The notes under the pieces are model-generated. The model ran no database searches, was not told the DNA's origin, and worked only from the letters and a program-made list of their open reading frames with translations. Positions 1 to 33,056 of a DNA stretch of 64,000 nt are shown here, in pieces. Both the position numbers and the translations under genes were made by a program. How positions within the stretch are numbered: the stretch's first letter is position 1; each line of letters begins with the position of its first letter. Location: the NCBI RefSeq assembly GCF_054482525.1, contig NZ_CM137006.1; one strand, 5' to 3'.

Positions 1-780
1 GCTGAACGCATGCAGGATGAGATTCTTCAGGAGCAAATCCTGATTGAAACCGAAGGCGAACGCATCGGGCAAATTAACGCCCTATCGGTCATTGAATTTC
101 CGGGTCATCCACGCGCTTTTGGCGAACCTTCTCGCATTAGCTGCGTTGTGCATATTGGCGATGGTGAATTCACCGACATCGAACGCAAAGCGGAGCTTGG
201 CGGCAATATCCATGCGAAAGGGATGATGATCATGCAGGCGTTCCTGATGTCGGAACTACAGCTTGAGCAACAGATCCCCTTCTCAGCATCGCTGACATTT
301 GAGCAGTCATACAGTGAAGTGGATGGCGATAGTGCCTCGATGGCTGAACTCTGCGCCCTGATAAGCGCCCTCGCCGATGTGCCGGTGAATCAGAGTATCG
401 CTATCACAGGTTCAGTCGATCAGTTCGGTCGCGCCCAGCCGGTCGGTGGTTTAAATGAGAAAATCGAAGGCTTCTTTGCTATTTGCCAGCAACGTGAGTT
501 AACGGGGAAACAAGGTGTCATTATCCCCACAGCTAACGTTCGCCATTTAAGTCTTCACAGTGAGCTGGTGAAAGCGGTAGAAGAAGGTAAATTCACCATC
601 TGGGCAGTAGACGATGTGACTGACGCACTGCCGTTATTATTAAATCTGGTGTGGGATGGCGAAGGCCAAACGACGCTGATGCAAACCATCCAGGAACGTA
701 TCGCGCAAGCATCGCAACAGGAAGGACGTCACCGTTTTCCATGGCCATTACGTTGGCTGAACTGGTTTATTCCGAACTGA
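1..780 (+). CDS. ycbZ: Lon-like protease YcbZ, C-terminal part (5' end outside window)
   Basis: ORF 10..780 is in frame from position 1; Lon proteolytic-domain-like sequence ([10 protein letters not shown] region); sits immediately upstream of fabA as in E. coli. Confidence 0.85.
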
Positions 781-791
781 TCGGACTTGTT
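775..791 (+). promoter_or_regulatory. FadR operator of the fabA promoter (AACTGATCGGACTTGTT)
   Basis: Sequence matches the FadR box known for fabA (recalled); lies about 60 nt upstream of the fabA ATG and overlaps the ycbZ stop codon. Confidence 0.7.
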
Positions 792-792
792 C

Positions 793-810
793 AGCGTACA
801 CGTGTTAGCT
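793..810 (+). promoter_or_regulatory. FabR operator of the fabA promoter (AGCGTACACGTGTTAGCT)
   Basis: Palindromic element directly downstream of the FadR box, followed by TATCCT as a likely -10; matches the described fabA FabR site (recalled). Confidence 0.6.
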
Positions 811-848
811 ATCCTGCGTGCTTCAATAAAATAAGGCTTACAGAGAAC

Positions 849-1367
849 ATGGTAGATAAACGCGAATCCTATACAAAAGAAGACCTTCTTGCCTCTGGTC
901 GCGGTGAACTGTTTGGCGCTAAAGGCCCGCAATTGCCAGCACCGAACATGCTGATGATGGACCGTGTGGTCAAAATGACCGAAACGGGTGGTAACTTCGA
1001 CAAAGGGTATGTTGAAGCAGAACTGGATATCAATCCGGATCTGTGGTTCTTCGGATGCCACTTCATTGGCGATCCGGTTATGCCAGGATGCCTGGGCCTG
1101 GACGCAATGTGGCAGCTGGTAGGGTTCTACCTCGGCTGGCTGGGCGGCGAAGGTAAAGGCCGCGCGCTGGGCGTTGGCGAAGTGAAATTCACTGGTCAGG
1201 TACTGCCGACAGCGAAAAAAGTGACCTACCGTATTCACTTTAAACGCATTGTTAACCGTCGTCTGATTATGGGCCTGGCGGATGGCGAAGTGCTGGTTGA
1301 TGGTCGTTTGATCTATACCGCCAGCGACCTGAAAGTCGGTTTGTTCCAGGATACGTCTGCCTTCTGA
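849..1367 (+). CDS. fabA: 3-hydroxydecanoyl-ACP dehydratase/isomerase FabA (172 aa)
   Basis: ORF-track 651..1367 trimmed to the internal ATG at 849 ([13 protein letters not shown]); active-site region [14 protein letters not shown]; the 5' extension overlaps ycbZ and the fabA promoter. Confidence 0.95.
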
Positions 1368-1395
1368 TTATAATCAGACAGAGTATCAAAAGGCG

Positions 1396-1424
1396 AAACC
1401 TCCGCAATGCGGAGGTTTCTTTTT
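1396..1424. terminator. Bidirectional rho-independent terminator between convergent fabA and rmf
   Basis: Perfect 10-bp stem AAACCTCCGC / GCGGAGGTTT with 3-nt loop, flanked by T-run on + and A-run (T-run on the minus strand). Confidence 0.75.
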
Positions 1425-1436
1425 AAAGAGACAGAA

Positions 1437-1604
1437 TCAGGCCATTACTACCCTGTCCGCCATGGCTTCTCGCCAGCCTCCCAGCCATTGTGACCTTTGA
1501 TTCAGCGTCTGATAGGGACACATTTCTTTTGAGCGTCCGGCGATGCCGGCCTGATAACCACGTTGATGTGCCCGTTCCAGGCGATCTCGTTTTTGTCTCT
1601 TCAT
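1437..1604 (-). CDS. rmf: Ribosome modulation factor (55 aa)
   Basis: Hand-translated minus-strand ORF MKRQKRDRLERAHQRGYQAGIAGRSKEMCPYQTLNQRSQWLGGWREAMADRVVMA; below the ORF-track length cutoff; the listed 65-aa ORF 1423..1620 is an overlapping wrong frame. Confidence 0.9.
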   Translation of the reverse strand: MKRQKRDRLERAHQRGYQAGIAGRSKEMCPYQTLNQRSQWLGGWREAMADRVVMA

Positions 1605-1803
1605 GCCTCGTTTCCCTCATACTGGTTTCTGGTGGAAAAGAAAACAGTGATTACTAAATGTGCAATCACAGTTAAGCAATACCGCGAATCATAACTGCCG
1701 TCAATGCGCAAAATTCACGCCACTGTCATATTTGTGAGCTACACGGGCATGTCGGTTGTACAAAAAATGTGAAGAGGAACAACTTTTTCCGCACCTTAGA
1801 AAC

Positions 1804-1837
1804 AAAAAAACCGCCTCAGGCAACATACCGGAGACGG
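1804..1837 (-). terminator. Putative pqiC terminator hairpin
   Basis: Imperfect stem CCGCCTC..GAGACGG (one G-U pair in the minus-strand transcript) followed by a U-run on the minus strand just downstream of the pqiC stop. Confidence 0.4.
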
Positions 1838-1859
1838 TTATATTTACAAATCTTTATAA

Positions 1860-2423
1860 TTAAGGTAGACGCTTTATCTCTTGCGCAATAGAAGCGGCTT
1901 CCTGACTCCAGACACTGGCCAGTACTTTAACCATCTCATCGTAACCATCCTGAGTTTGCACCCCTTCCAGACGGAACGGACGTTTGATCAGTTGTCCCTG
2001 GTGGTTCAACAGCCATTCACCACTGACAATGACCTTGCCATCATAGCGACCGTTAAACTCCGTTACGGTAACATTGAGCGTGTCCTGGGCGCTTCCCAGA
2101 GGCTGGGAGGCAACCACCCAGCCGGGCAGTTGCGTACTCAGGTTGGCAACCAGAGTGTTGCGCAACTGTTGATCCAACGGGCTGGCCCACAAGTTGTTGT
2201 TGGCAATCACATACTTCACATCACTGGTTTGATAAACCACACCATTTCCGGCCAGATAGTCAGGAACAGCGAACTGCTCTACCCATAACAGGCGATTACC
2301 CTGGCTGGCGGTACTTTGTGTACCGCTCTGCACCACAGGTAACTGGTAATAGTTTTTATTAATTTCGCCGGAGCTGCATCCGGCCAGCCACAGTGCTGCA
2401 ATCGTCACTAGCCACTTTTTCAT
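1860..2423 (-). CDS. pqiC: Paraquat-inducible lipoprotein PqiC (YmbA)
   Basis: ORF track, 187 aa; signal peptide with lipobox LAGCSS; 4-nt overlap with pqiB stop. Confidence 0.9.
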   Translation of the reverse strand: MKKWLVTIAALWLAGCSSGEINKNYYQLPVVQSGTQSTASQGNRLLWVEQFAVPDYLAGNGVVYQTSDVKYVIANNNLWASPLDQQLRNTLVANLSTQLPGWVVASQPLGSAQDTLNVTVTEFNGRYDGKVIVSGEWLLNHQGQLIKRPFRLEGVQTQDGYDEMVKVLASVWSQEAASIAQEIKRLP

Positions 2424-4060
2424 TGTTTCGCCCTCTTCGGCTCTGGATCTTTTTTGTCCTTCGCTTCAAATACCAGCGCGTTACTCTTCTCATTGAGCGT
2501 TTTCAGCACCGGTTGCAGTTCTCGCAACACCTGATCAAGGCGCTGCATATCCGCCACCATCTTGTTGTAGGCTGCGGAGCCAGGCTGGAAGCCCTGCATA
2601 CTGCGATTCAATTCACGCAACGTTGACTGCATATCCGTCGGTAACTGCTGCATCGACTGGCTGGCGAGGATCTTGTTCATGCTATCCAGCGTCGTTTGCA
2701 GGTTTTTCATTGTGCGCTGACTTTCAGAAAGCGTACTGGTTGCCTGTTCAATCATCGGATTCAATGGCAGTTTGTTGATCTTATCCAACGCTTCCATCAG
2801 TCGTTGCTGGATTTGCGCCAGACCGCCGCTAACGGTCGGGATAATCTGATAACCATTAAATTCACGAATACCGGTTATTGCAGGCGTATTTGGATAGAAA
2901 TCGAGATCAACATACAGTGCGCCAGTGACCAGGTTTCCGGTTTTCAGCGATCCACGTAAACCACGTTTCAACAATTCGCCAAGGTGCTCAACAACATCCG
3001 CATTTTCGCCAAGCTGCATTTTCAGCCGCTCTGGCTCGATACGAATCAGTACCGGAATACGGTAATCATCGTTAAATGTCTGACGCATATTCGGCGCAAA
3101 GAATGGCACTTTGCTTACGGTACCCAGGCGAATACCCCGGAATTCTACCGGAGCTCCCGGTTGCAGACCGCGTACCGAATCTTTAAAGAACATCAGATAA
3201 TCAATGTGATCGGTGTACAACGAATCCTGAATGCTCTTCTGATCATCATACAAAACGAAAGCTGTTTTCGGTGCCACTGGCTGCCCTAAATCCAGACCTT
3301 CCGGCACATCAAAGCTGACACCGCCACTAAGCAGCGTTGTCAATGAGCCCATCTCCACACGCATTCCCGCTGACGTCAAATCAACCGCAATGCCACTATC
3401 TTTCCAGAAGCGAACATTGCTGGTCACCAGTCGGTCATAAGGTGCATTGATGAACAGTTGATAGCTGATATTGCGTTTTTGCGTATCGAAGGTGCTGGTT
3501 TCAACCGAACCTACCCGATAGCCACGGAACAGCACGGGATCTCCTGGCGAGAGCTGCCCGGCTTTTTTGCTATCGAGAATCACACGGATACCTTTCGCAT
3601 CAGGCGGGGCCAACGGTGGCGAGTCCAGCAAATCGTATTTATCCATTTTGCTGCCTTTCGCGCCTGGCTGCAGTTCGATATAAACCCCAGACAGCAGCGT
3701 TCCCAGGCCGCTAATCCCTTCTCGACCAATCTGCGGTTTCACCACCCAAAAGACGGTATCTTTATGCAGCAATTTTTCCATACCGGAATTCAGCCGCGCT
3801 TTGATTTCAACGTGCGTCAAATCATCAGCCAGTGTGGCGCTTTCAACCACGCCGACGTCAACGCTACGGCTTTTAATGGTGGTTTTACCACCTTCTATTC
3901 CTTCCGCATTCGCGGTGATCAGGGTCACTTCCGGCCCCTGATGGCTGTAATGATAAAAAAGAACCCAGGCCCCAATGAGCGCCGTGACGATAGGAAATAT
4001 CCACACGGGAGACCAGTTCTTCACTTTCTGGATTTTGGCTTCCCCATTATTAGATTCCAT
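2420..4060 (-). CDS. pqiB: MCE-domain intermembrane transport protein PqiB (546 aa)
   Basis: ORF-track 2420..4120 trimmed to the conserved start MESNNGEAKIQ; single N-terminal TM helix followed by repeated MCE-like domains. Confidence 0.9.
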   Translation of the reverse strand: MESNNGEAKIQKVKNWSPVWIFPIVTALIGAWVLFYHYSHQGPEVTLITANAEGIEGGKTTIKSRSVDVGVVESATLADDLTHVEIKARLNSGMEKLLHKDTVFWVVKPQIGREGISGLGTLLSGVYIELQPGAKGSKMDKYDLLDSPPLAPPDAKGIRVILDSKKAGQLSPGDPVLFRGYRVGSVETSTFDTQKRNISYQLFINAPYDRLVTSNVRFWKDSGIAVDLTSAGMRVEMGSLTTLLSGGVSFDVPEGLDLGQPVAPKTAFVLYDDQKSIQDSLYTDHIDYLMFFKDSVRGLQPGAPVEFRGIRLGTVSKVPFFAPNMRQTFNDDYRIPVLIRIEPERLKMQLGENADVVEHLGELLKRGLRGSLKTGNLVTGALYVDLDFYPNTPAITGIREFNGYQIIPTVSGGLAQIQQRLMEALDKINKLPLNPMIEQATSTLSESQRTMKNLQTTLDSMNKILASQSMQQLPTDMQSTLRELNRSMQGFQPGSAAYNKMVADMQRLDQVLRELQPVLKTLNEKSNALVFEAKDKKDPEPKRAKQ

Positions 4061-12637: not shown

Positions 12638-12653
12638 GCGCAAACGTTTTCCG
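12638..12653. promoter_or_regulatory. PurR-box-like element upstream of pyrD (GCGCAAACGTTTTCCG)
   Basis: Good match to the PurR operator consensus ACGCAAACGTTTTCTT (recalled), about 90 nt upstream of the pyrD start. Confidence 0.45.
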
Positions 12654-12661
12654 AGCCTGTT

Positions 12662-13372
12662 TCAGAGCAGATTTTGCTCCTTCTTTGCACTCAACCCGCC
12701 GTAATCATTTATCGTCCGCCAGGAGACATGACACGGTGCTATTGCCTGACACCAGCTTGTCTGACGCTGGCTTTTAGGTGGCACAACTCCCGCATTACTT
12801 AACGCTTTACCATTTACGCTCACCTGAATCAGGTTAATGTAGTAAGGCGTTGGGTTAGTGAGTTGTACACCCTGCGAATTCCGTGTCCAGCGTAATTGTT
12901 GATAAGCTTCCAGCGGGTCGCCCGGCAAACCTTCGGGTCGCCAGAACAGTTTAAATACCGAGCGCATCGCCACTTTTACGCTCTGATTTTCAACTTTGCC
13001 GGATGGCACGCTGGCAATGCTTAACTCAAATAGCGTTTCGCGATCCACAGGCAAGATGTCGCTTTCCGTTCTCAGCAAGCGCAACGTGCCTGTAGTACCG
13101 GGCTTCAGGAGAACAAGTGGTGGAGCGACCAGTAGTGGTGCTGACCCTGTCGATGCTTCGCCCCCGGCCCAACGCGTTGGGCGATTGATTTTACTGTTAA
13201 TAAGCCAGGATTCCTGACTGGTATTAGTCAGTGAAATAGATATCGATTCTCTGTCTGCCGGGAAGATAAATCGCGTTCCGCCAACCACCACTCCTGCCTG
13301 CAATTCCCCCGCCACCAGCAGCGATAAAACGGCAAAAATCGCGAGCGTCAATCTGTTCCACGTATTAGTCAT
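12662..13372 (-). CDS. ycbF: Periplasmic fimbrial chaperone YcbF (PapD-like)
   Basis: ORF-track 12662..13399 trimmed to MTNTWNRLTL (236 aa); last gene of the elf chaperone-usher cluster. Confidence 0.8.
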   Translation of the reverse strand: MTNTWNRLTLAIFAVLSLLVAGELQAGVVVGGTRFIFPADRESISISLTNTSQESWLINSKINRPTRWAGGEASTGSAPLLVAPPLVLLKPGTTGTLRLLRTESDILPVDRETLFELSIASVPSGKVENQSVKVAMRSVFKLFWRPEGLPGDPLEAYQQLRWTRNSQGVQLTNPTPYYINLIQVSVNGKALSNAGVVPPKSQRQTSWCQAIAPCHVSWRTINDYGGLSAKKEQNLL

Positions 13373-13880
13373 AATGAAGTACAAATGTCGCGCTGGCATT
13401 CACTTTACCCGACTGCACATCGCTATTAACAGGTCGCAATTGCGCATAAAAAGTTAATGGCACCTTACCGCTATGTAGGCTGTAGTCTTTACTCGCCTGG
13501 TTAAGCGGAATCAATATTTTCGCATCATCCAGAATCGCAATTGCCAGCCCACTGGCTGCATCCGTACCACTTTCAATGGACAGCATTTCGCTCTGCATTC
13601 CGTCGGGTGTTCCTGAAAAGGTAACGTCAACCGTGCTGACATCTGTTCCGCAATCCTGCAAATTAATGATGAAAGATTTCTCCGGGCCATAGTTCCCATG
13701 AGAAAAACGTGTCAGCGAGACATCGCCTAACTGCACATTGATTTGCTTGCTATCCTGTGCCAGCACGCATGTATTACGGCGAAACGATCCGCTAATGTTG
13801 ACCGTGCCATCATGGGCAAATAGCTCACAACCCCCCGTTAATCCCAGTAAGAACAGAATCCAGATTATCCGTTTCAACAT
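13365..13880 (-). CDS. ycbV: Fimbrial-like subunit YcbV
   Basis: ORF-track 13365..13928 trimmed to MLKRIIWILFLLGL (171 aa); signal peptide; 8-nt overlap with ycbF start. Confidence 0.75.
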   Translation of the reverse strand: MLKRIIWILFLLGLTGGCELFAHDGTVNISGSFRRNTCVLAQDSKQINVQLGDVSLTRFSHGNYGPEKSFIINLQDCGTDVSTVDVTFSGTPDGMQSEMLSIESGTDAASGLAIAILDDAKILIPLNQASKDYSLHSGKVPLTFYAQLRPVNSDVQSGKVNASATFVLHYD

Positions 13881-13887
13881 CACTCCT

Positions 13888-14430
13888 TCACTGGTAAACC
13901 AGATCAAAATAGAGAACCGCCGTCGCATTACCGCCCGTTGCTCCCGCCTTTGTGGACTTATAACGAAGTTGATATTTGAGTGTGTTATCCCCGGCTTTTA
14001 AGGGCGTAAGAGGCTGGACCTGATTGAGCGGGATTTCTTGCTGACTTTGCGCATCAAGAATTTGCACGGCAATCCCCGTTGCCATACCACCGCTTCCGCC
14101 TGTGTCAGTTAGTTTGAGCAGTGTCGGCGCAAGGGTGTCAGCCTCGCCGCTAAAAAGGACGTCCGCGCCAGTAATACCAGCGGCACAACCGGTGATATCG
14201 ATATTCAAATCAGCAGCAGTGCTTACGGTATTCGCGGCCTGAAAATCACTGATATTAAAATCACCAATATGAATATTTTGTAATGCACTTTTGGTGGCGA
14301 CATCACAGCCCTGATCGACCACATTCCCATAAATATGCATACTAACTTGTTCAGGCCCAGCCATCCCGACATGGGTGTTAAGAAAGCTAAAGAACAAGAT
14401 AACGTACTGAAATATTGTTTTTTTCTTCAT
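13888..14430 (-). CDS. ycbU: Fimbrial-like subunit YcbU
   Basis: ORF track, 180 aa; signal peptide; C-terminal pilin-like tail (AVLYFDLVYQ). Confidence 0.8.
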   Translation of the reverse strand: MKKKTIFQYVILFFSFLNTHVGMAGPEQVSMHIYGNVVDQGCDVATKSALQNIHIGDFNISDFQAANTVSTAADLNIDITGCAAGITGADVLFSGEADTLAPTLLKLTDTGGSGGMATGIAVQILDAQSQQEIPLNQVQPLTPLKAGDNTLKYQLRYKSTKAGATGGNATAVLYFDLVYQ

Positions 14431-14441
14431 ACGTTCACGCG

Positions 14442-18103
<3,662 letters not shown>

Positions 18104-18127
18104 CTCGCTCTCTTAACTGAAGACGGC

Positions 18128-18829
18128 TTACGATTTGCAGTTGAGTTGCGGCGTTTCCGCCCCGTAGTCATTGATGGTTCGGTACGTTACGCTGTTATTT
18201 TTGGCACCCTTTGGCAGAGAGAATTGGTATTTATCAAAGGGGGAAATCATTTGATTTTTAACTACCTTTCCACCTATTTTCAGGTCTGTCAGGGTAATGA
18301 AATAAGGTGTTGGGTTACTGACCGTAACCATGTCAGCTGACGAAGTGCAACGCAGTTTCGCCGGAGCCTCGGCTAAGGGATACGCTAAACCTTTTGGTCG
18401 CCAGAAAAGTTTGATGACGCTTTGTGTGGCAATCTTCAGGGTATTGCCTTCTTCCCGCTTCGTTGTTGAAGGGACTGCCCGTACGCTGGTGAAGAAAAGA
18501 GTTTCTCTGTCTTTCGCCAACGGCGCGCCAATGTACATAATGCGTAGCAGGTTCTCGTTTGCCGGATTTAGCACAAATAGCGGTGGTGTAATAATAAAGT
18601 CCGCTGACTTTTTATTATCTGGTGTCATCACCCATGACTGAATCAGATAAGGAACATCCGGACTGGTGTTACGTACACCCAGTGAAATTTGCTCTTCACC
18701 TTCCGAATAAACAAGACGTGTTGCTGCAAGTCCGACCCCACCTTTACCTGCCGCCCATGTGAACGAACAGCTGAGTAATATTGCCGTTAAACTTACGGTC
18801 ACAATTCCCTTTGTTATGCAAGTTTTCAT
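18128..18829 (-). CDS. elfD: Periplasmic fimbrial chaperone ElfD
   Basis: ORF track, 233 aa; PapD-like chaperone with signal peptide. Confidence 0.9.
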   Translation of the reverse strand: MKTCITKGIVTVSLTAILLSCSFTWAAGKGGVGLAATRLVYSEGEEQISLGVRNTSPDVPYLIQSWVMTPDNKKSADFIITPPLFVLNPANENLLRIMYIGAPLAKDRETLFFTSVRAVPSTTKREEGNTLKIATQSVIKLFWRPKGLAYPLAEAPAKLRCTSSADMVTVSNPTPYFITLTDLKIGGKVVKNQMISPFDKYQFSLPKGAKNNSVTYRTINDYGAETPQLNCKS

Positions 18830-18911
18830 AAATAGTCACTCTTAAAAAATATGGATATCCCCTCCAGAACACTGGAGGGGGACTAATTAATAAAACAATT
18901 AATGTGTTCTA

Positions 18912-19454
18912 TTAATAATAGTTAATATGAAAATCCGTTACCGCATTAACATTACCTGAAGTCGCTTTACCCGTAGCGATATAATCAACTTTAAAAGTCA
19001 CTGTTTGCTCAGCGGAATCCGCTAACTGAATATTCGACGTTTCAATACCGGGAGTTACCGATGTAGAACCATCTGGCAGATACATTTGTAGAGCAACATT
19101 CGTCGCTGCATCGGTGGAAGCCTGGTTGGCAAATGCTGTAGGTTGCACTCCGTCAGCCGTACCACTGAAGGTAAAAGTCGCATTTTTAGTTACAGTAACA
19201 TCACAGCCTTCTAAGGCAATTGGTACATCAGTTTTAACGCCAGAGACTGCACCATTAGTTTGCAACTTGGTGGCGCTGACATTTGGCAATGTGACTACTG
19301 AATCTTTGTTCGCAGCTACCAGCGAACAAGCTGGAGCAATGACTTTACCATTAAATGTTACTGAGCCATCCGTGATAGCATTATCATCAGCTGCCATAAC
19401 ACTGGACGTTGCACATACCACAGTTATAAACGCCGTCAATACACTTTTTTTCAT
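18912..19454 (-). CDS. elfA: Major fimbrial subunit ElfA
   Basis: ORF-track 18912..19463 trimmed to MKKSVLTAFITVVCATSSVMA (signal peptide); pilin-like C-terminus. Confidence 0.85.
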   Translation of the reverse strand: MKKSVLTAFITVVCATSSVMAADDNAITDGSVTFNGKVIAPACSLVAANKDSVVTLPNVSATKLQTNGAVSGVKTDVPIALEGCDVTVTKNATFTFSGTADGVQPTAFANQASTDAATNVALQMYLPDGSTSVTPGIETSNIQLADSAEQTVTFKVDYIATGKATSGNVNAVTDFHINYY

Positions 19455-19809
19455 CGTTATCATCCTGATCTTTTCGTAAATATGATAATGCCTTTAAATG
19501 ACATTGGACTTAATAATAACAACAATTGTCCGCCATTTAAATCAAGCATCTTTAATCCATTAAGTGACAAATCTTTAATTTATAGATTTCATGAATATTT
19601 TCTTATTGCCTGAATGAGTAATTCATTGATTCAACATCTAATGACTATCCAATAAATAAATATGCGTGATATATAAAGCCCTTTCTTTAGTTTATTTTCA
19701 GAAAAAGATACACAAAATTTATATTTGGCATTTTCTTGTCTCTCCGACAGACTGACCGAATTGTTATCAATGTTAACAAAAAAAGAACAATTGGTTATAA
19801 GGAGAGAGT

Positions 19810-20385
19810 ATGCGTGTCATCACCCTGGCGGGTAGTCCTCGCTTTCCTTCTCGCTCCAGCTCCTTGCTGGAATATGCGCGGGAAAAACTGAATGGCCTGG
19901 ATGTAGAGGTTTATCACTGGAATCTGCAAAACTTTGCCCCGGAAGATCTGCTTTATGCTCGTTTCGATAGTCCGGCACTCAATACCTTCACCGAACAGTT
20001 GCAACAGGCTGACGGGCTGATTGTCGCCACGCCTGTGTATAAAGCCGCCTATTCCGGTGCGCTAAAAACCCTGCTCGACCTGCTGCCAGAACGTGCGTTG
20101 CAAGGCAAAGTGGTGCTACCGCTGGCGACGGGCGGTACGGTGGCCCATCTGCTGGCGGTCGATTATGCCCTTAAGCCAGTTTTAAGTGCGCTGAAAGCCC
20201 AGGAGATCCTGCACGGCGTGTTTGCCGATGACTCACAGGTGATTGATTACCACCACAAGCCGCAGTTCACGCCGAATTTACAAACCCGTCTTGATACCGC
20301 GCTAGAAACTTTCTGGCAGGCATTGCACCGTCGGGATGTTCAGGTTCCTGACCTTCTGTCTCTGCGAGGTAATGCCCATGCGTAA
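19810..20385 (+). CDS. ssuE: NADPH-dependent FMN reductase SsuE
   Basis: ORF track, 191 aa; first gene of ssuEADCB. Confidence 0.9.
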   Translation: MRVITLAGSPRFPSRSSSLLEYAREKLNGLDVEVYHWNLQNFAPEDLLYARFDSPALNTFTEQLQQADGLIVATPVYKAAYSGALKTLLDLLPERALQGKVVLPLATGGTVAHLLAVDYALKPVLSALKAQEILHGVFADDSQVIDYHHKPQFTPNLQTRLDTALETFWQALHRRDVQVPDLLSLRGNAHA

Positions 20386-21307
20386 GATCATTAAACTGGC
20401 GCTGGCGGGATTGCTTAGCGTCTCTACTTTTGCGGTTGCTGCAGAATCCTCGCCTGAAGCGTTACGTATAGGCTATCAGAAAGGCAGTATTGGTATGGTG
20501 CTGGCAAAAAGCCACCAGTTACTGGAAAAACGCTATCCGCAAACAAAAATCTCGTGGGTGGAGTTTCCCGCGGGACCGCAAATGTTGGAGGCGTTAAACG
20601 TTGGCAGTATTGATCTCGGCAGTACCGGAGATATTCCGCCAATCTTTGCCCAGGCTGCCGGTGCTGATTTGGTATATGTGGGCGTCGAGCCGCCGAAGCC
20701 CAAAGCCGAAGTGATTCTGGTGGCAGAAAATAGCCCGATCAAAACCGTAGCCGATCTTAAAGGTCACAAAGTTGCCTTTCAGAAAGGTTCCAGCTCTCAC
20801 AATCTTTTACTACGCGCACTACGCCAGGCCGGGCTTAAATTCACGGATATTCAGCCCACTTACCTGACGCCTGCCGATGCCCGCGCCGCGTTCCAGCAAG
20901 GTAACGTCGACGCATGGGCTATCTGGGATCCCTACTACTCCGCTGCATTATTACAGGGCGGCGTGCGGGTGTTGAAAGACGGCACCGATCTCAATCAAAC
21001 CGGATCGTTTTATCTGGCAGCTCGCCCCTATGCAGAAAAAAACGGCGCTTTTATTCAGGGCGTACTGGCAACCTTTAGTGAGGCCGATGCGTTAACCCGC
21101 TGCCAGCGCGAGCAAAGCATCGCCTTATTGGCAAAAACGATGGGCTTACCGGCCCCAGTGATTGCCTCGTATCTGGATCATCGCCCTCCCACCACCATCA
21201 AACCGGTTAACGCCGAAGTTGCCGCCTTACAGCAGCAAACGGCAGATCTGTTTTATGAAAACCGTCTGGTGCCGAAAAAAGTCGATATTCGCCAGCGTAT
21301 CTGGTAG
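20378..21307 (+). CDS. ssuA: Alkanesulfonate ABC transporter periplasmic binding protein SsuA
   Basis: ORF-track 20336..21307 trimmed to [13 protein letters not shown] (signal peptide); ATG overlaps the ssuE 3' end by 8 nt. Confidence 0.9.
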
Positions 21308-24313: not shown

Positions 24314-24835
24314 ATGAAACATTCATTTGAAGTAAAACTTGCCGCTGTAAATCACTACCTGGCTGGTCATGCAGGCATCATTTCTACGGCAAAACTCTTT
24401 CAACTTTCTCACACCAGCCTCTCACACTGGATTAATCTTTTTCTTCTTCACGGTCCTCGGGCACTGGATTGCAGACACAAGCGTAGCTATTCTCCTGAAG
24501 ATAAACTTTGCGTGGTTCTTTATGCTCTCGGGCATTCTGAGTCTCTACCCCGGGTAGCTGCCCGGTTTAACATTCCCAGCCACAACACGGTTAAAAACTG
24601 GATAAAAGGCTACCGCAAATCTGGTAATGAGGCCTTTATCAGGCGCAGGAAGGAGAAAAGCATGACCCGTTCTGATGATACCCATGAAAACGAGGCAAAC
24701 ATGACGCCGGAAGAGATGAAGAATGAGCTGCGTTATCTTCGCGCAGAAAATGCATATCTGAAAGCCATGCAGGAGCATCTCCTGGAAAAAAAGCGCCAGG
24801 AGCTGGAGAAAAAACGAAAGTCATCCGGAGCCTGA
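24314..24835 (+). CDS. IS3-family transposase OrfA (helix-turn-helix and leucine-zipper part)
   Basis: ORF-track 24305..24835 (GTG) with likely ATG at 24314 (MKHSFEVKL) preceded by AGGTG; ends just after the slippery heptamer A-AAA-AAG at 24787-24793. Confidence 0.85.
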   Translation: MKHSFEVKLAAVNHYLAGHAGIISTAKLFQLSHTSLSHWINLFLLHGPRALDCRHKRSYSPEDKLCVVLYALGHSESLPRVAARFNIPSHNTVKNWIKGYRKSGNEAFIRRRKEKSMTRSDDTHENEANMTPEEMKNELRYLRAENAYLKAMQEHLLEKKRQELEKKRKSSGA

Positions 24836-24939
24836 GGTGCGGACACTGCCAGTCTGACCTGTTAAAGGCTGCAGGGCTGGCCAGAAGCACGCTGTACTAC
24901 CAGCTGTCACTGCAGAAGGCTAAGGACAAGTATGCTGAT

Positions 24940-25694
<755 letters not shown>

Positions 25695-31982: not shown

Positions 31983-33056
31983 ATGATGAAGCGCAATATT
32001 CTGGCAGTGATCGTCCCTGCTCTGTTAGTAGCAGGTACTGCAAACGCTGCAGAAATCTATAACAAAGATGGCAACAAAGTAGATCTGTACGGTAAAGCTG
32101 TCGGTCTGCATTATTTTTCTAAAGACAATGGTGTAAACAGTTACGGCGGAAACGGCGACAAAACTTATGCCCGTCTTGGTTTTAAAGGGGAAACACAAAT
32201 CAATTCCGATCTGACCGGCTACGGTCAGTGGGAATATAACTTCCAGGGTAACAACTCTGAAGGCGCTGATGCCCAGAAAGGTAACAAAACTCGTCTGGCA
32301 TTCGCAGGTCTGAAATTCGCTGATGCGGGTTCTATCGACTACGGTCGTAACTACGGTGTGGTTTACGACGCACTGGGTTACACCGATATGCTGCCTGAGT
32401 TTGGCGGTGACACGGCATACAGCGATGACTTCTTCGTTGGTCGTGTAGGCGGCGTTGCTACCTATCGTAACTCCAACTTCTTCGGTCTGGTTGACGGCCT
32501 GAACTTTGCCGTTCAGTACCTGGGCAAAAACGAACGTGCTGGTATTCCTGAGCGTTCCAACGGCGACGGCGTCGGTGGCTCTATCAGCTACGAATTCGAA
32601 GGCTTTGGTATCGTAGGTGCTTACGGTGCAGCAGACCGTACCGACGCCCAGGAAGCCGAATTCCGCGGTCAGGGTAAAAAAGCTGAACAGTGGGCAACTG
32701 GTCTGAAGTATGACGCGAACAACATCTACCTGGCAGCGAACTACGGTGAAACCCGTAACGCTACGCCAATTGAAGGCGGCTTCGCCAACAAAACGCAAGA
32801 CGTTCTGTTAGTTGCGCAATACCAGTTCGATTTCGGTCTGCGTCCGTCCATCGCTTACACCAAATCTAAAGCGAAAGACGTAGAAGGTATCGGTGATGTT
32901 GATCTGGTGAACTACTTTGAAGTGGGCGCAACCTACTACTTCAACAAAAACATGTCCACCTATGTTGACTACATCATCAACCAGATCGATTCTGACAACA
33001 AACTGGGCGTAGGTTCTGACGACACCGTTGCAGTGGGTATCGTTTACCAGTTCTAA
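31983..33056 (+). CDS. ompF: Outer-membrane porin OmpF (357 aa, loop-variant allele)
   Basis: ORF track; signal peptide [22 protein letters not shown], mature N-terminus [11 protein letters not shown]-terminal VYQF; differs from remembered K-12 OmpF (362 aa) mainly in predicted external loops. Confidence 0.95.

Follow-up and report, generated by a model that had tools for sequence, protein, structure and literature searches.

The ssuEADCB operon for sulfonate utilisation and the fimbrial operon elfADCG-ycbUVF are transcribed divergently in Escherichia coli, and the spacer between their first genes, ssuE and elfA, serves both. The ssu promoter, which depends on Cbl (van der Ploeg et al. 1999; Bykowski et al. 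2002), reportedly lies in this spacer: van der Ploeg and colleagues are reported to have described a Cbl site upstream of the -35 element that is needed for full expression, together with three CysB and three IHF sites at the promoter, neither kind being required in vivo. Here we describe the elfA-ssuE gap of E. coli PCN033 within a 64-kb stretch of its chromosome (hereafter the window; 100% identity to PCN033 over its whole length). All positions are window coordinates, and the gene calls are those of the RefSeq annotation.

The closest described system is the same spacer in K-12. In that strain, ssuEADCB and elfADCG-ycbUVF are both members of the H-NS regulon in three data sets, over-production of SlyA raises their expression 3.6-fold and 2.7-fold, respectively, and purified SlyA binds the 355-bp spacer in an electrophoretic mobility shift assay (EMSA), with TCAGGATGATAA, just upstream of elfA, as the best candidate SlyA box (PMC5797941, Table 3). 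Genomic SELEX (systematic evolution of ligands by exponential enrichment) with RNA polymerase-RpoD gave a peak inside this spacer, under which the hexamers ATGACA-17-AATAAT toward ssuE and TTTAAA-17-TATTAT toward elfA were proposed (PMC3946193), and ssuEADCB is a member of the Cbl/CysB sulfate iModulon (PMC11748552). The PCN033 gap is 96.1% identical to the K-12 ssuE-elfA (ycbP-ycbQ) spacer over 355 bp and is orthologous to it, so the gap is an already-known and studied control region whose basic role is not new. A first reading made from the sequence alone (the sequence-only reading) had taken the interval for a control region of the H-NS-silenced type, which the K-12 regulon data, the SlyA EMSA and the co-induction of both operons support. 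The same reading had expected the gap to hold an elf promoter and a Cbl/CysB-dependent ssuE promoter, and this agrees with the K-12 SELEX peak, the sulfate iModulon and the orthology of the two spacers.

We found that the gap is very probably a junction, where ancestral ssuE core promoter DNA meets insertion-borne AT-rich DNA that has replaced a deeply conserved upstream module. Neither the junction nor the promoter replacement was found described in the literature searchable here. Taken further, the gap can be read as a composite divergent control region of two origins, with a predicted elfA promoter and a putatively replaced Cbl site, and we give this reading a probability of about 0.75.

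In a megablast search of 5426 complete E. coli genomes, roughly one in four matched the region only from ~19742 onward. These elf-minus genomes lack the elf operon altogether, and their pyrD adjoins ssuE divergently across 236 bp, as seen in two loci. The uninterrupted pyrD-ssuE form was counted in 1353 of the 5426 genomes and the full elf-type spacer in 3966-4001, while at least pieces of the elf-type spacer were present in 4056. Compared with the uninterrupted order, PCN033 carries one insertion that ends inside the gap (Table 1), and the part of the gap that belongs to it is 293 bp long (19455-19747, ~28% GC). The elf+ and elf-minus forms remain homologous beside pyrD up to the end of GCAAACGTTTTC (12640-12651), and toward ssuE they match again from CAGACTGACCGAA (19748), where a few extra matching bases make the right border fuzzy, within 19742-19748. 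In place of the insertion, elf-minus strains hold 75 bp, TTATTGCGCTTTTTTTATGCTTTTTTTGGCTTTTCTTCCTCAGATAAATCATTTCGACTCGCGGACGCCCTCTGT. The ancestral core next to ssuE is 98.5% identical between elf+ and elf-minus E. coli, whereas identity in the register of the upstream module is only 43.6%. Its arrangement AATTGTTATCAATGTTA ... GGTTATAAGGAG before the ssuE ATG is present in PCN033, as judged from 33 aligned Enterobacteriaceae loci and 12 more distant ones that were inspected.

Between pyrD and ssuE there are only the seven fimbrial genes, with no integrase and no tRNA, and at the borders we found no direct or inverted repeats and no target-site duplication, the best border repeat being 7 nt. 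A classical genomic island was thus rejected, since integrase, tRNA or attachment site and flanking direct repeats are all missing. The GCAAACGTTTTC element upstream of pyrD presumably is the pyrD PurR operator, which it resembles, and the insertion starts right after it. At this border elf+ genomes read ...TTTTCCG and elf-minus genomes ...TTTTCTT, so that the last two positions differ.

To place the two forms in a wider context, SsuE was searched in one genome per species, which gave 80 loci. As a result, pyrD was the divergent neighbour of ssuE in ~60 of the 80, with a spacing of mostly 225-260 bp and four outlying loci with longer gaps of up to ~530 bp. These loci come from Citrobacter, Enterobacter, Klebsiella, Kosakonia, Leclercia, Lelliottia, Kluyvera, Buttiauxella, Cedecea, Pluralibacter, Erwinia, Pantoea, Mixta and Serratia, and from two further Escherichia lineages. 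Their spacers align end to end, the 75-bp elf-minus module included, and the module is found across three families as well as in a quarter of E. coli genomes. Escherichia lineages share 87-95% identity in the module, and E. coli shares 55-66% with the other genera. The conserved blocks are TTATGC-N8-GC, GATAAATCATTTAG and CTCTGnCA, the first two lying ~50-90 bp upstream of the core, and the GATAAATCATTTAG block is recognisable out to Erwinia and Pantoea.

The module was then looked for in the elf+ gap with three methods. A profile hidden Markov model (HMM) of the module scored 2.7 bits on the gap, 230 bp out of register, against 46.9 bits on the elf-minus control; a weight matrix of GATAAATCATTTAG scored 7.3 bits on the wrong strand, against 21.8 bits on the control; and in sensitive-mode BLAST the elf-minus genomes had no match upstream of ~19742 of the query. 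Nothing detectable of the ancestral upstream module thus appears to be left in the elf+ gap. Because a deletion cannot recreate a conserved 75-bp module, the uninterrupted pyrD-ssuE order is taken as ancestral and elf as gained. As far as comparison of sequences goes, this settles that elf/ycb was gained and not lost in B2, in agreement with the report of Ycb fimbriae in phylogroups A, B1, D and E but not B2 (PMC3559732).

The GC content of the gap is 28.0% against 50.9% for the window, and 346-bp stretches equally AT-rich make up 0.06% of all those in the 64 kb, every one of them overlapping the elfA-ssuE interval; the ompF upstream region is the only other stretch of the window below 33% GC. 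Runs of A/T of 4-7 bases are present. By RefSeq annotation the gap is the second-longest intergenic one, after ompF-asnS with 602 bp and before gaps of 268, 265 and 260 bp. The sequence-only reading had described the interval as strongly AT-rich, rich in A/T tracts and the longest non-coding one after the ompF upstream region, all of which was confirmed. Its extent of 346 bp needed correction: the divergent gap exists, while RefSeq starts elfA at 19454 and not at 19463, which makes 355 bp, as in K-12. The in-frame ATG at 19463, 9 bp upstream of the annotated start, has no Shine-Dalgarno sequence. In two of the genomes compared, deletions bordered by insertion sequences (IS) take away part of this control region: in strain 23AR1101 an IS1 stands in place of elfA, the spacer and 27 bp at the start of ssuE, and in strain CX07 an ISKpn26 replaces elfA through part of ycbU together with 155 spacer bp. 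IS elements thus seem to target the AT-rich gap.

Table 1. Features of the elfA-ssuE gap and its surroundings (window coordinates; polymorphism among nine elf+ alleles).
Feature	Position	Strand	Description and basis
Whole elfA-ssuE intergenic region	19455..19809	.	355 bp, 28% GC; RefSeq annotation, composition rank, 96.1% identity to K-12 spacer
elfA	18912..19454	-	Major fimbrial subunit, annotated start MKKS; RefSeq annotation
ssuE	19810..20385	+	NADPH-dependent FMN reductase, first gene of ssuEADCB; RefSeq annotation
Insertion relative to ancestral pyrD-ssuE order	12652..19747	-	7096 bp, ~46.7% GC; ycbF-ycbV-ycbU-elfG-elfC-elfD-elfA plus 293 bp of gap; alignment borders
Ancestral ssuE-proximal core	19748..19809	+	62 bp; contains AATTGTTATCAATGTTA and GGTTATAAGGAG; common to all E. 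coli, alignable across Enterobacteriaceae
Insertion-borne segment CAGAAAAAGATACACAAAATTTATATTTGGCATTTTCTTGTCTCTCCGA directly upstream of junction	19698..19747	+	Conserved in elf+ alleles; candidate K-12-type upstream activating/Cbl-binding region
Candidate ssuE promoter P_a, extended -10-like TGtTATCAA	19762..19770	+	No good -35; read from sequence; predicted start ~19777, 33-nt leader including Shine-Dalgarno
Alternative candidate ssuE promoter P_b, TTAACA-17-TATAAG	19773..19801	+	Read from sequence; predicted start ~19808, almost leaderless mRNA
ssuE Shine-Dalgarno AAGGAGA	19799..19805	+	Sequence; invariant in all aligned loci
Predicted elfA sigma-70 promoter TTTAAA-17-TATTAT, upstream TG	19513..19541	-	Scan; hexamers as in PMC3946193; predicted start ~19506, leader ~52 nt
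Predicted far-upstream promoter in ssuE direction, ATGACA-17-AACAAT	19498..19526	+	Scan; proposed in PMC3946193; AATAAT in K-12
Candidate SlyA box TCAGGATGATAA	19457..19468	-	PMC5797941; identical in PCN033; just upstream of elfA start codon
Perfect match AATCAATGAATTA to IHF consensus WATCAANNNNTTR	19619..19631	-	Motif scan; inside fairly conserved stretch
elfA-proximal part	19455-19541		14% polymorphic; predicted elfA hexamers invariant
Hypervariable mid-gap spacer	19542..19615	.	30 of 74 positions polymorphic (40%), including an indel
Part with perfect IHF consensus	19616-19662		23% polymorphic
Variable part	19663-19697		34% polymorphic
Inserted DNA adjoining junction	19698-19748		12% polymorphic
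Ancestral core (polymorphism)	19749-19809		11.5% polymorphic
GATAAATCATTT			In B2-type (elf-minus) spacer

Polymorphism along the gap was assessed with nine diverse elf+ alleles, up to 11% divergent. As shown in Table 1, variation is unevenly spread. In the segment adjoining the junction 6 of 51 positions are polymorphic, against 53 of 156 (34%) in 19542-19697 (Fisher p = 0.002), and the core has 7 of 61. This suggests that the conserved segment 19698-19747 may be functional, and because it lies directly upstream of a poor -35 it is a candidate for the K-12-type Cbl site; its place ahead of the -35 of P_a agrees with the position reported for the Cbl site in K-12.

Promoters were examined with a sigma-70 pattern scan, which found 4 promoter-like sites in the gap, compared with 2.7 +/- 1.6 in shuffled sequences. 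Since this is not above the shuffles, the scan alone is not promoter evidence, and it was used only to place the hexamers of the literature. In this promoter prediction, which the sequence-only reading had suggested as a check, the elfA and ssuE hexamers of PMC3946193 were located. Both hexamers of the predicted elfA promoter are invariant in all nine alleles, and the -10 hexamer of the far-upstream predicted promoter toward ssuE is polymorphic among them.

For ssuE itself there are two candidates within the core, P_a and P_b. The TAT[C/G]AA of P_a is conserved across genera, and the TATAAG of P_b is invariant from E. coli to Erwinia and Serratia; the scan missed P_b, as it demands a T at the last -10 position. 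P_a is favoured as the candidate ssuE promoter, because the invariant AAGGAG must lie in the mRNA to serve as a ribosome-binding site. The stretch AAC(A/T)TTnGTTATAAGGAG at 19786-19805, just ahead of the ssuE start codon, is nearly invariant from E. coli to Erwinia and Serratia (loci L005-L064), which exceeds the need of a ribosome-binding site; a -10 element, a binding site for a regulator or an element of the mRNA are possible reasons. The ancestral core also contains a 7-bp inverted repeat, AATTGTT-N20-AACAATT. Covariation of its arms across species was inconsistent by eye and was dropped.

Regulator motifs were also scanned. Besides the perfect IHF match, two more IHF sites with one mismatch each were found at 19568-19588, and the H-NS motif TCGATAAATT had one match with 1 mismatch at 19577-19586. 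The candidate SlyA box has 4 mismatches to the SlyA consensus TTAGCAAGCTAA and is a weak box.

Based on these results, we propose the following explanation. The ancestral 62 bp (19748-19809) provide the ssuE core promoter, the leader and the Shine-Dalgarno sequence. The 7.1-kb elfADCG-ycbUVF insertion between pyrD and ssuE brought 293 bp and displaced the 75-bp ancestral module. The inserted AT-rich DNA would carry the elfA promoter, probably TTTAAA-17-TATTAT at 19541-19513, and, going by the K-12 literature, to be the target of H-NS silencing and SlyA counter-silencing, a coupling that would place ssuEADCB under H-NS/SlyA influence in elf+ strains. The conserved inserted 50 bp (19698-19747) may now provide the upstream activating (Cbl) site for an ssu promoter of the K-12 type, from which RNA polymerase probably starts at ~19777, using the extended -10 TGtTATCAA. 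The most tentative part, for which we would give somewhat less than even odds, is that a Cbl site was re-established on foreign DNA and that the H-NS/SlyA coupling of ssu is specific to elf+ strains.

Several points weigh against this explanation. The cited evidence on H-NS, SlyA and Cbl is from K-12 only. The -10 hexamers of both P_a and P_b are without the conserved final T, and if P_b were the promoter, the region upstream of its -35 would lie largely within the shared core and the insertion would count for less in Cbl control. Since the nine alleles are not independent of one another, the low polymorphism of 19698-19747 could stem from recombination history instead of function. One phylogenomic study treated ycb as lost in the G/B2 lineage (PMC6896753). 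Finally, TTTGGC(A)TTTTCTT occurs in the upstream DNA of both elf+ and elf-minus strains (Smith-Waterman) and might be taken as residual homology, a remnant reading that assumes a 31-bp deletion; in dinucleotide shuffles the match was not significant, with p = 0.36 for the whole gap and 0.12 for the proximal 60 bp, and it was rejected.

The loss of ycb described for the G/B2 sub-lineage would fit a plain, vertically inherited divergent promoter, in which all 355 bp are old, the Cbl/CysB sites are ancestral and the elf-minus strains deleted the fimbrial operon. Such inheritance would also explain why no mobility genes or border repeats mark an insertion, and an elfADC-like operon stands upstream of ssuE in Pseudocitrobacter too. 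However, a deletion cannot recreate the elf-minus module, which aligns block by block with dozens of genera, and the elf+ gap has no detectable similarity to it. In addition, Pseudocitrobacter keeps an ancestral-like block adjoining ssuE, so its junction is a different one. Vertical inheritance is thus largely refuted and, in our estimate, very unlikely, and the gain of elf corrects the ycb-loss reading of PMC6896753. The Pseudocitrobacter operon itself (loci L016 and L021, positions 35-3000) is divergent from ssuE in the same position and orientation as elf, with 52, 66 and 67% amino-acid identity; its gap is 470 bp long, and the block retained beside ssuE is GAAAAAGCATTTAGAG. Here one sees either another junction at this site, distinct from that of E. 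coli, or the insertion in an older form. The pyrD-ssuE site may receive such operons repeatedly, or flanking homology may have carried the cluster from one genus to another.

A gain of elf would still be compatible with a Cbl-dependent ssuE promoter that lies wholly in the shared 62-bp core, for example TTAACA-17-TATAAG with an activator over AATTGTTATCAATG, so that the inserted DNA matters only for elfA and for H-NS spreading. The near invariance of AATTGTTATCAATGTTA and GGTTATAAGGAG across families and the 7-bp inverted repeat within the core speak for it, as does the natural occurrence of either promoter type in front of an intact ssu operon. Nevertheless, a start at ~19808 would exclude the invariant Shine-Dalgarno sequence from the mRNA, the ancestral GATAAATCATTTAG block, conserved out to Erwinia, implies an upstream site, and the inserted 50 bp adjoining the junction are under constraint, so we regard a promoter confined to the core as unlikely. 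Far less probable still is an unannotated element in the gap, be it a gene for a small protein, a small RNA or a switch for fimbrial phase variation of the fimS-like inversion or pap-like Dam/Lrp kind. A 43-codon open reading frame (ORF) at 19482-19613 might suggest the first, yet it is not conserved: it falls within the hypervariable stretch, and one allele carries a frameshift in it; a small RNA has no Rfam match at E <= 1 in 19000-20300, and nothing is annotated in the K-12 gap. The two 18-nt arms of an imperfect inverted repeat (19510-19527 and 19759-19776; 78% complementary) stand 231 bp apart and would suit an invertible switch, but the right arm is ancestral core that species lacking elf conserve as well, the neighbourhood holds no recombinase gene, and a chimeric-junction query found the flipped junction in 0 of the 5426 genomes. 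A pap-like switch is expected to have two GATC sites ~100 bp apart, and the gap has a single one (19467); both kinds of switch were rejected.

If the composite, two-origin explanation holds, elf+ lineages (A, B1, D, E) and elf-minus (B2-type) lineages would run ssu from different upstream sites, and H-NS/SlyA coupling of ssu would be confined to the elf+ form. The spacer GC content of 42.8% in elf-minus against 28% in elf+ strains makes it plausible that the H-NS/SlyA response of K-12 ssuEADCB is a by-product of the fused elf DNA. H-NS binding and the SlyA response at ssuEADCB should, as predicted from the two spacers, be absent from elf-minus strains. It would also fit this explanation if the CysB and IHF sites reportedly without effect on ssu in K-12 were incidental binding to AT-rich DNA. 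The value of the finding is modest but real: a horizontally acquired fimbrial operon sits inside the regulatory region of a core metabolic operon, with the upstream half of that region replaced. The insertion would offer a simple origin for the presence of a sulfonate-utilisation operon in the K-12 H-NS and SlyA regulons. Control of ssu through a different, older upstream site is further predicted for a quarter of E. coli, B2-type extra-intestinal pathogens among them, and maps of the K-12 ssuE promoter would not be transferable to these strains.

Some features of neighbouring genes in PCN033 were also observed. The ssuA gene ends at a TAG (21305-21307) where K-12 and strain EC13 have CAG, so that the last 10 residues and the ssuA/ssuD overlap are lost. 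A copy of IS1397 (IS3 family) lies between pepN and ssuB at ~24314-25662, and ompF (~31983-33056) is annotated as a pseudogene with an internal stop.

Finally, we compared the gap with known systems. It shares with the K-12 ssuE-elfA region the flanking genes, the length and most of the sequence, and the two strains hardly differ at the candidate SlyA box, in the predicted elfA hexamers or over the ssuE-proximal 110 bp. The differences are 14 substitutions in PCN033, mostly in 19542-19615, and they include the -10 of the far-upstream predicted promoter, which is AACAAT in PCN033 and AATAAT in K-12. With the ancestral pyrD-ssuE spacer it has the final 62 bp ahead of ssuE in common, and the 100 bp nearest pyrD are likewise the same DNA in both forms of the locus. 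That spacer, however, is 236 bp long with 42.8% GC and has the 75-bp module absent from PCN033, where 7.1 kb of elf DNA, including 293 bp at ~28% GC, stands in the module's place.

The other Cbl-dependent E. coli promoter, that of tauABCD, was compared as well. The ancestral ssuE block ATAAATCATTTAGTGGAATAAC resembles ATAAAATCATCTGTGCGATAAC of tauA, and the two lie at similar distances from the start codon, 95 and 93 bp. The likeness needs a 1-nt gap, is not significant in shuffles (p = 0.11-0.33) and is missed by an ungapped matrix, so it is only a lead; the elf+ gap showed no resemblance to the tauA promoter in a shuffle test (p = 0.65).

The gap also resembles the promoters of the cryptic chaperone-usher fimbrial operons yad, yeh, sfm and elf/ycb (Korea et al. 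2010; Curran et al. 2017), which are silenced by H-NS and counter-silenced by SlyA or LeuO. As in those, the upstream region is AT-rich and lies on accessory DNA. The K-12 elf operon is itself poorly expressed, belongs to the H-NS regulon, and is bound and induced by SlyA. The PCN033 gap shows two of the features expected for xenogeneic silencing, namely an AT content far above average and DNA acquired relative to the ancestral gene order, although the island predictors of Curran et al. did not flag elf or ssu as island DNA. Unlike the other cryptic fimbrial operons, this locus joins its silenced region to the promoter of an operon of core metabolism, which SlyA co-induces in K-12.

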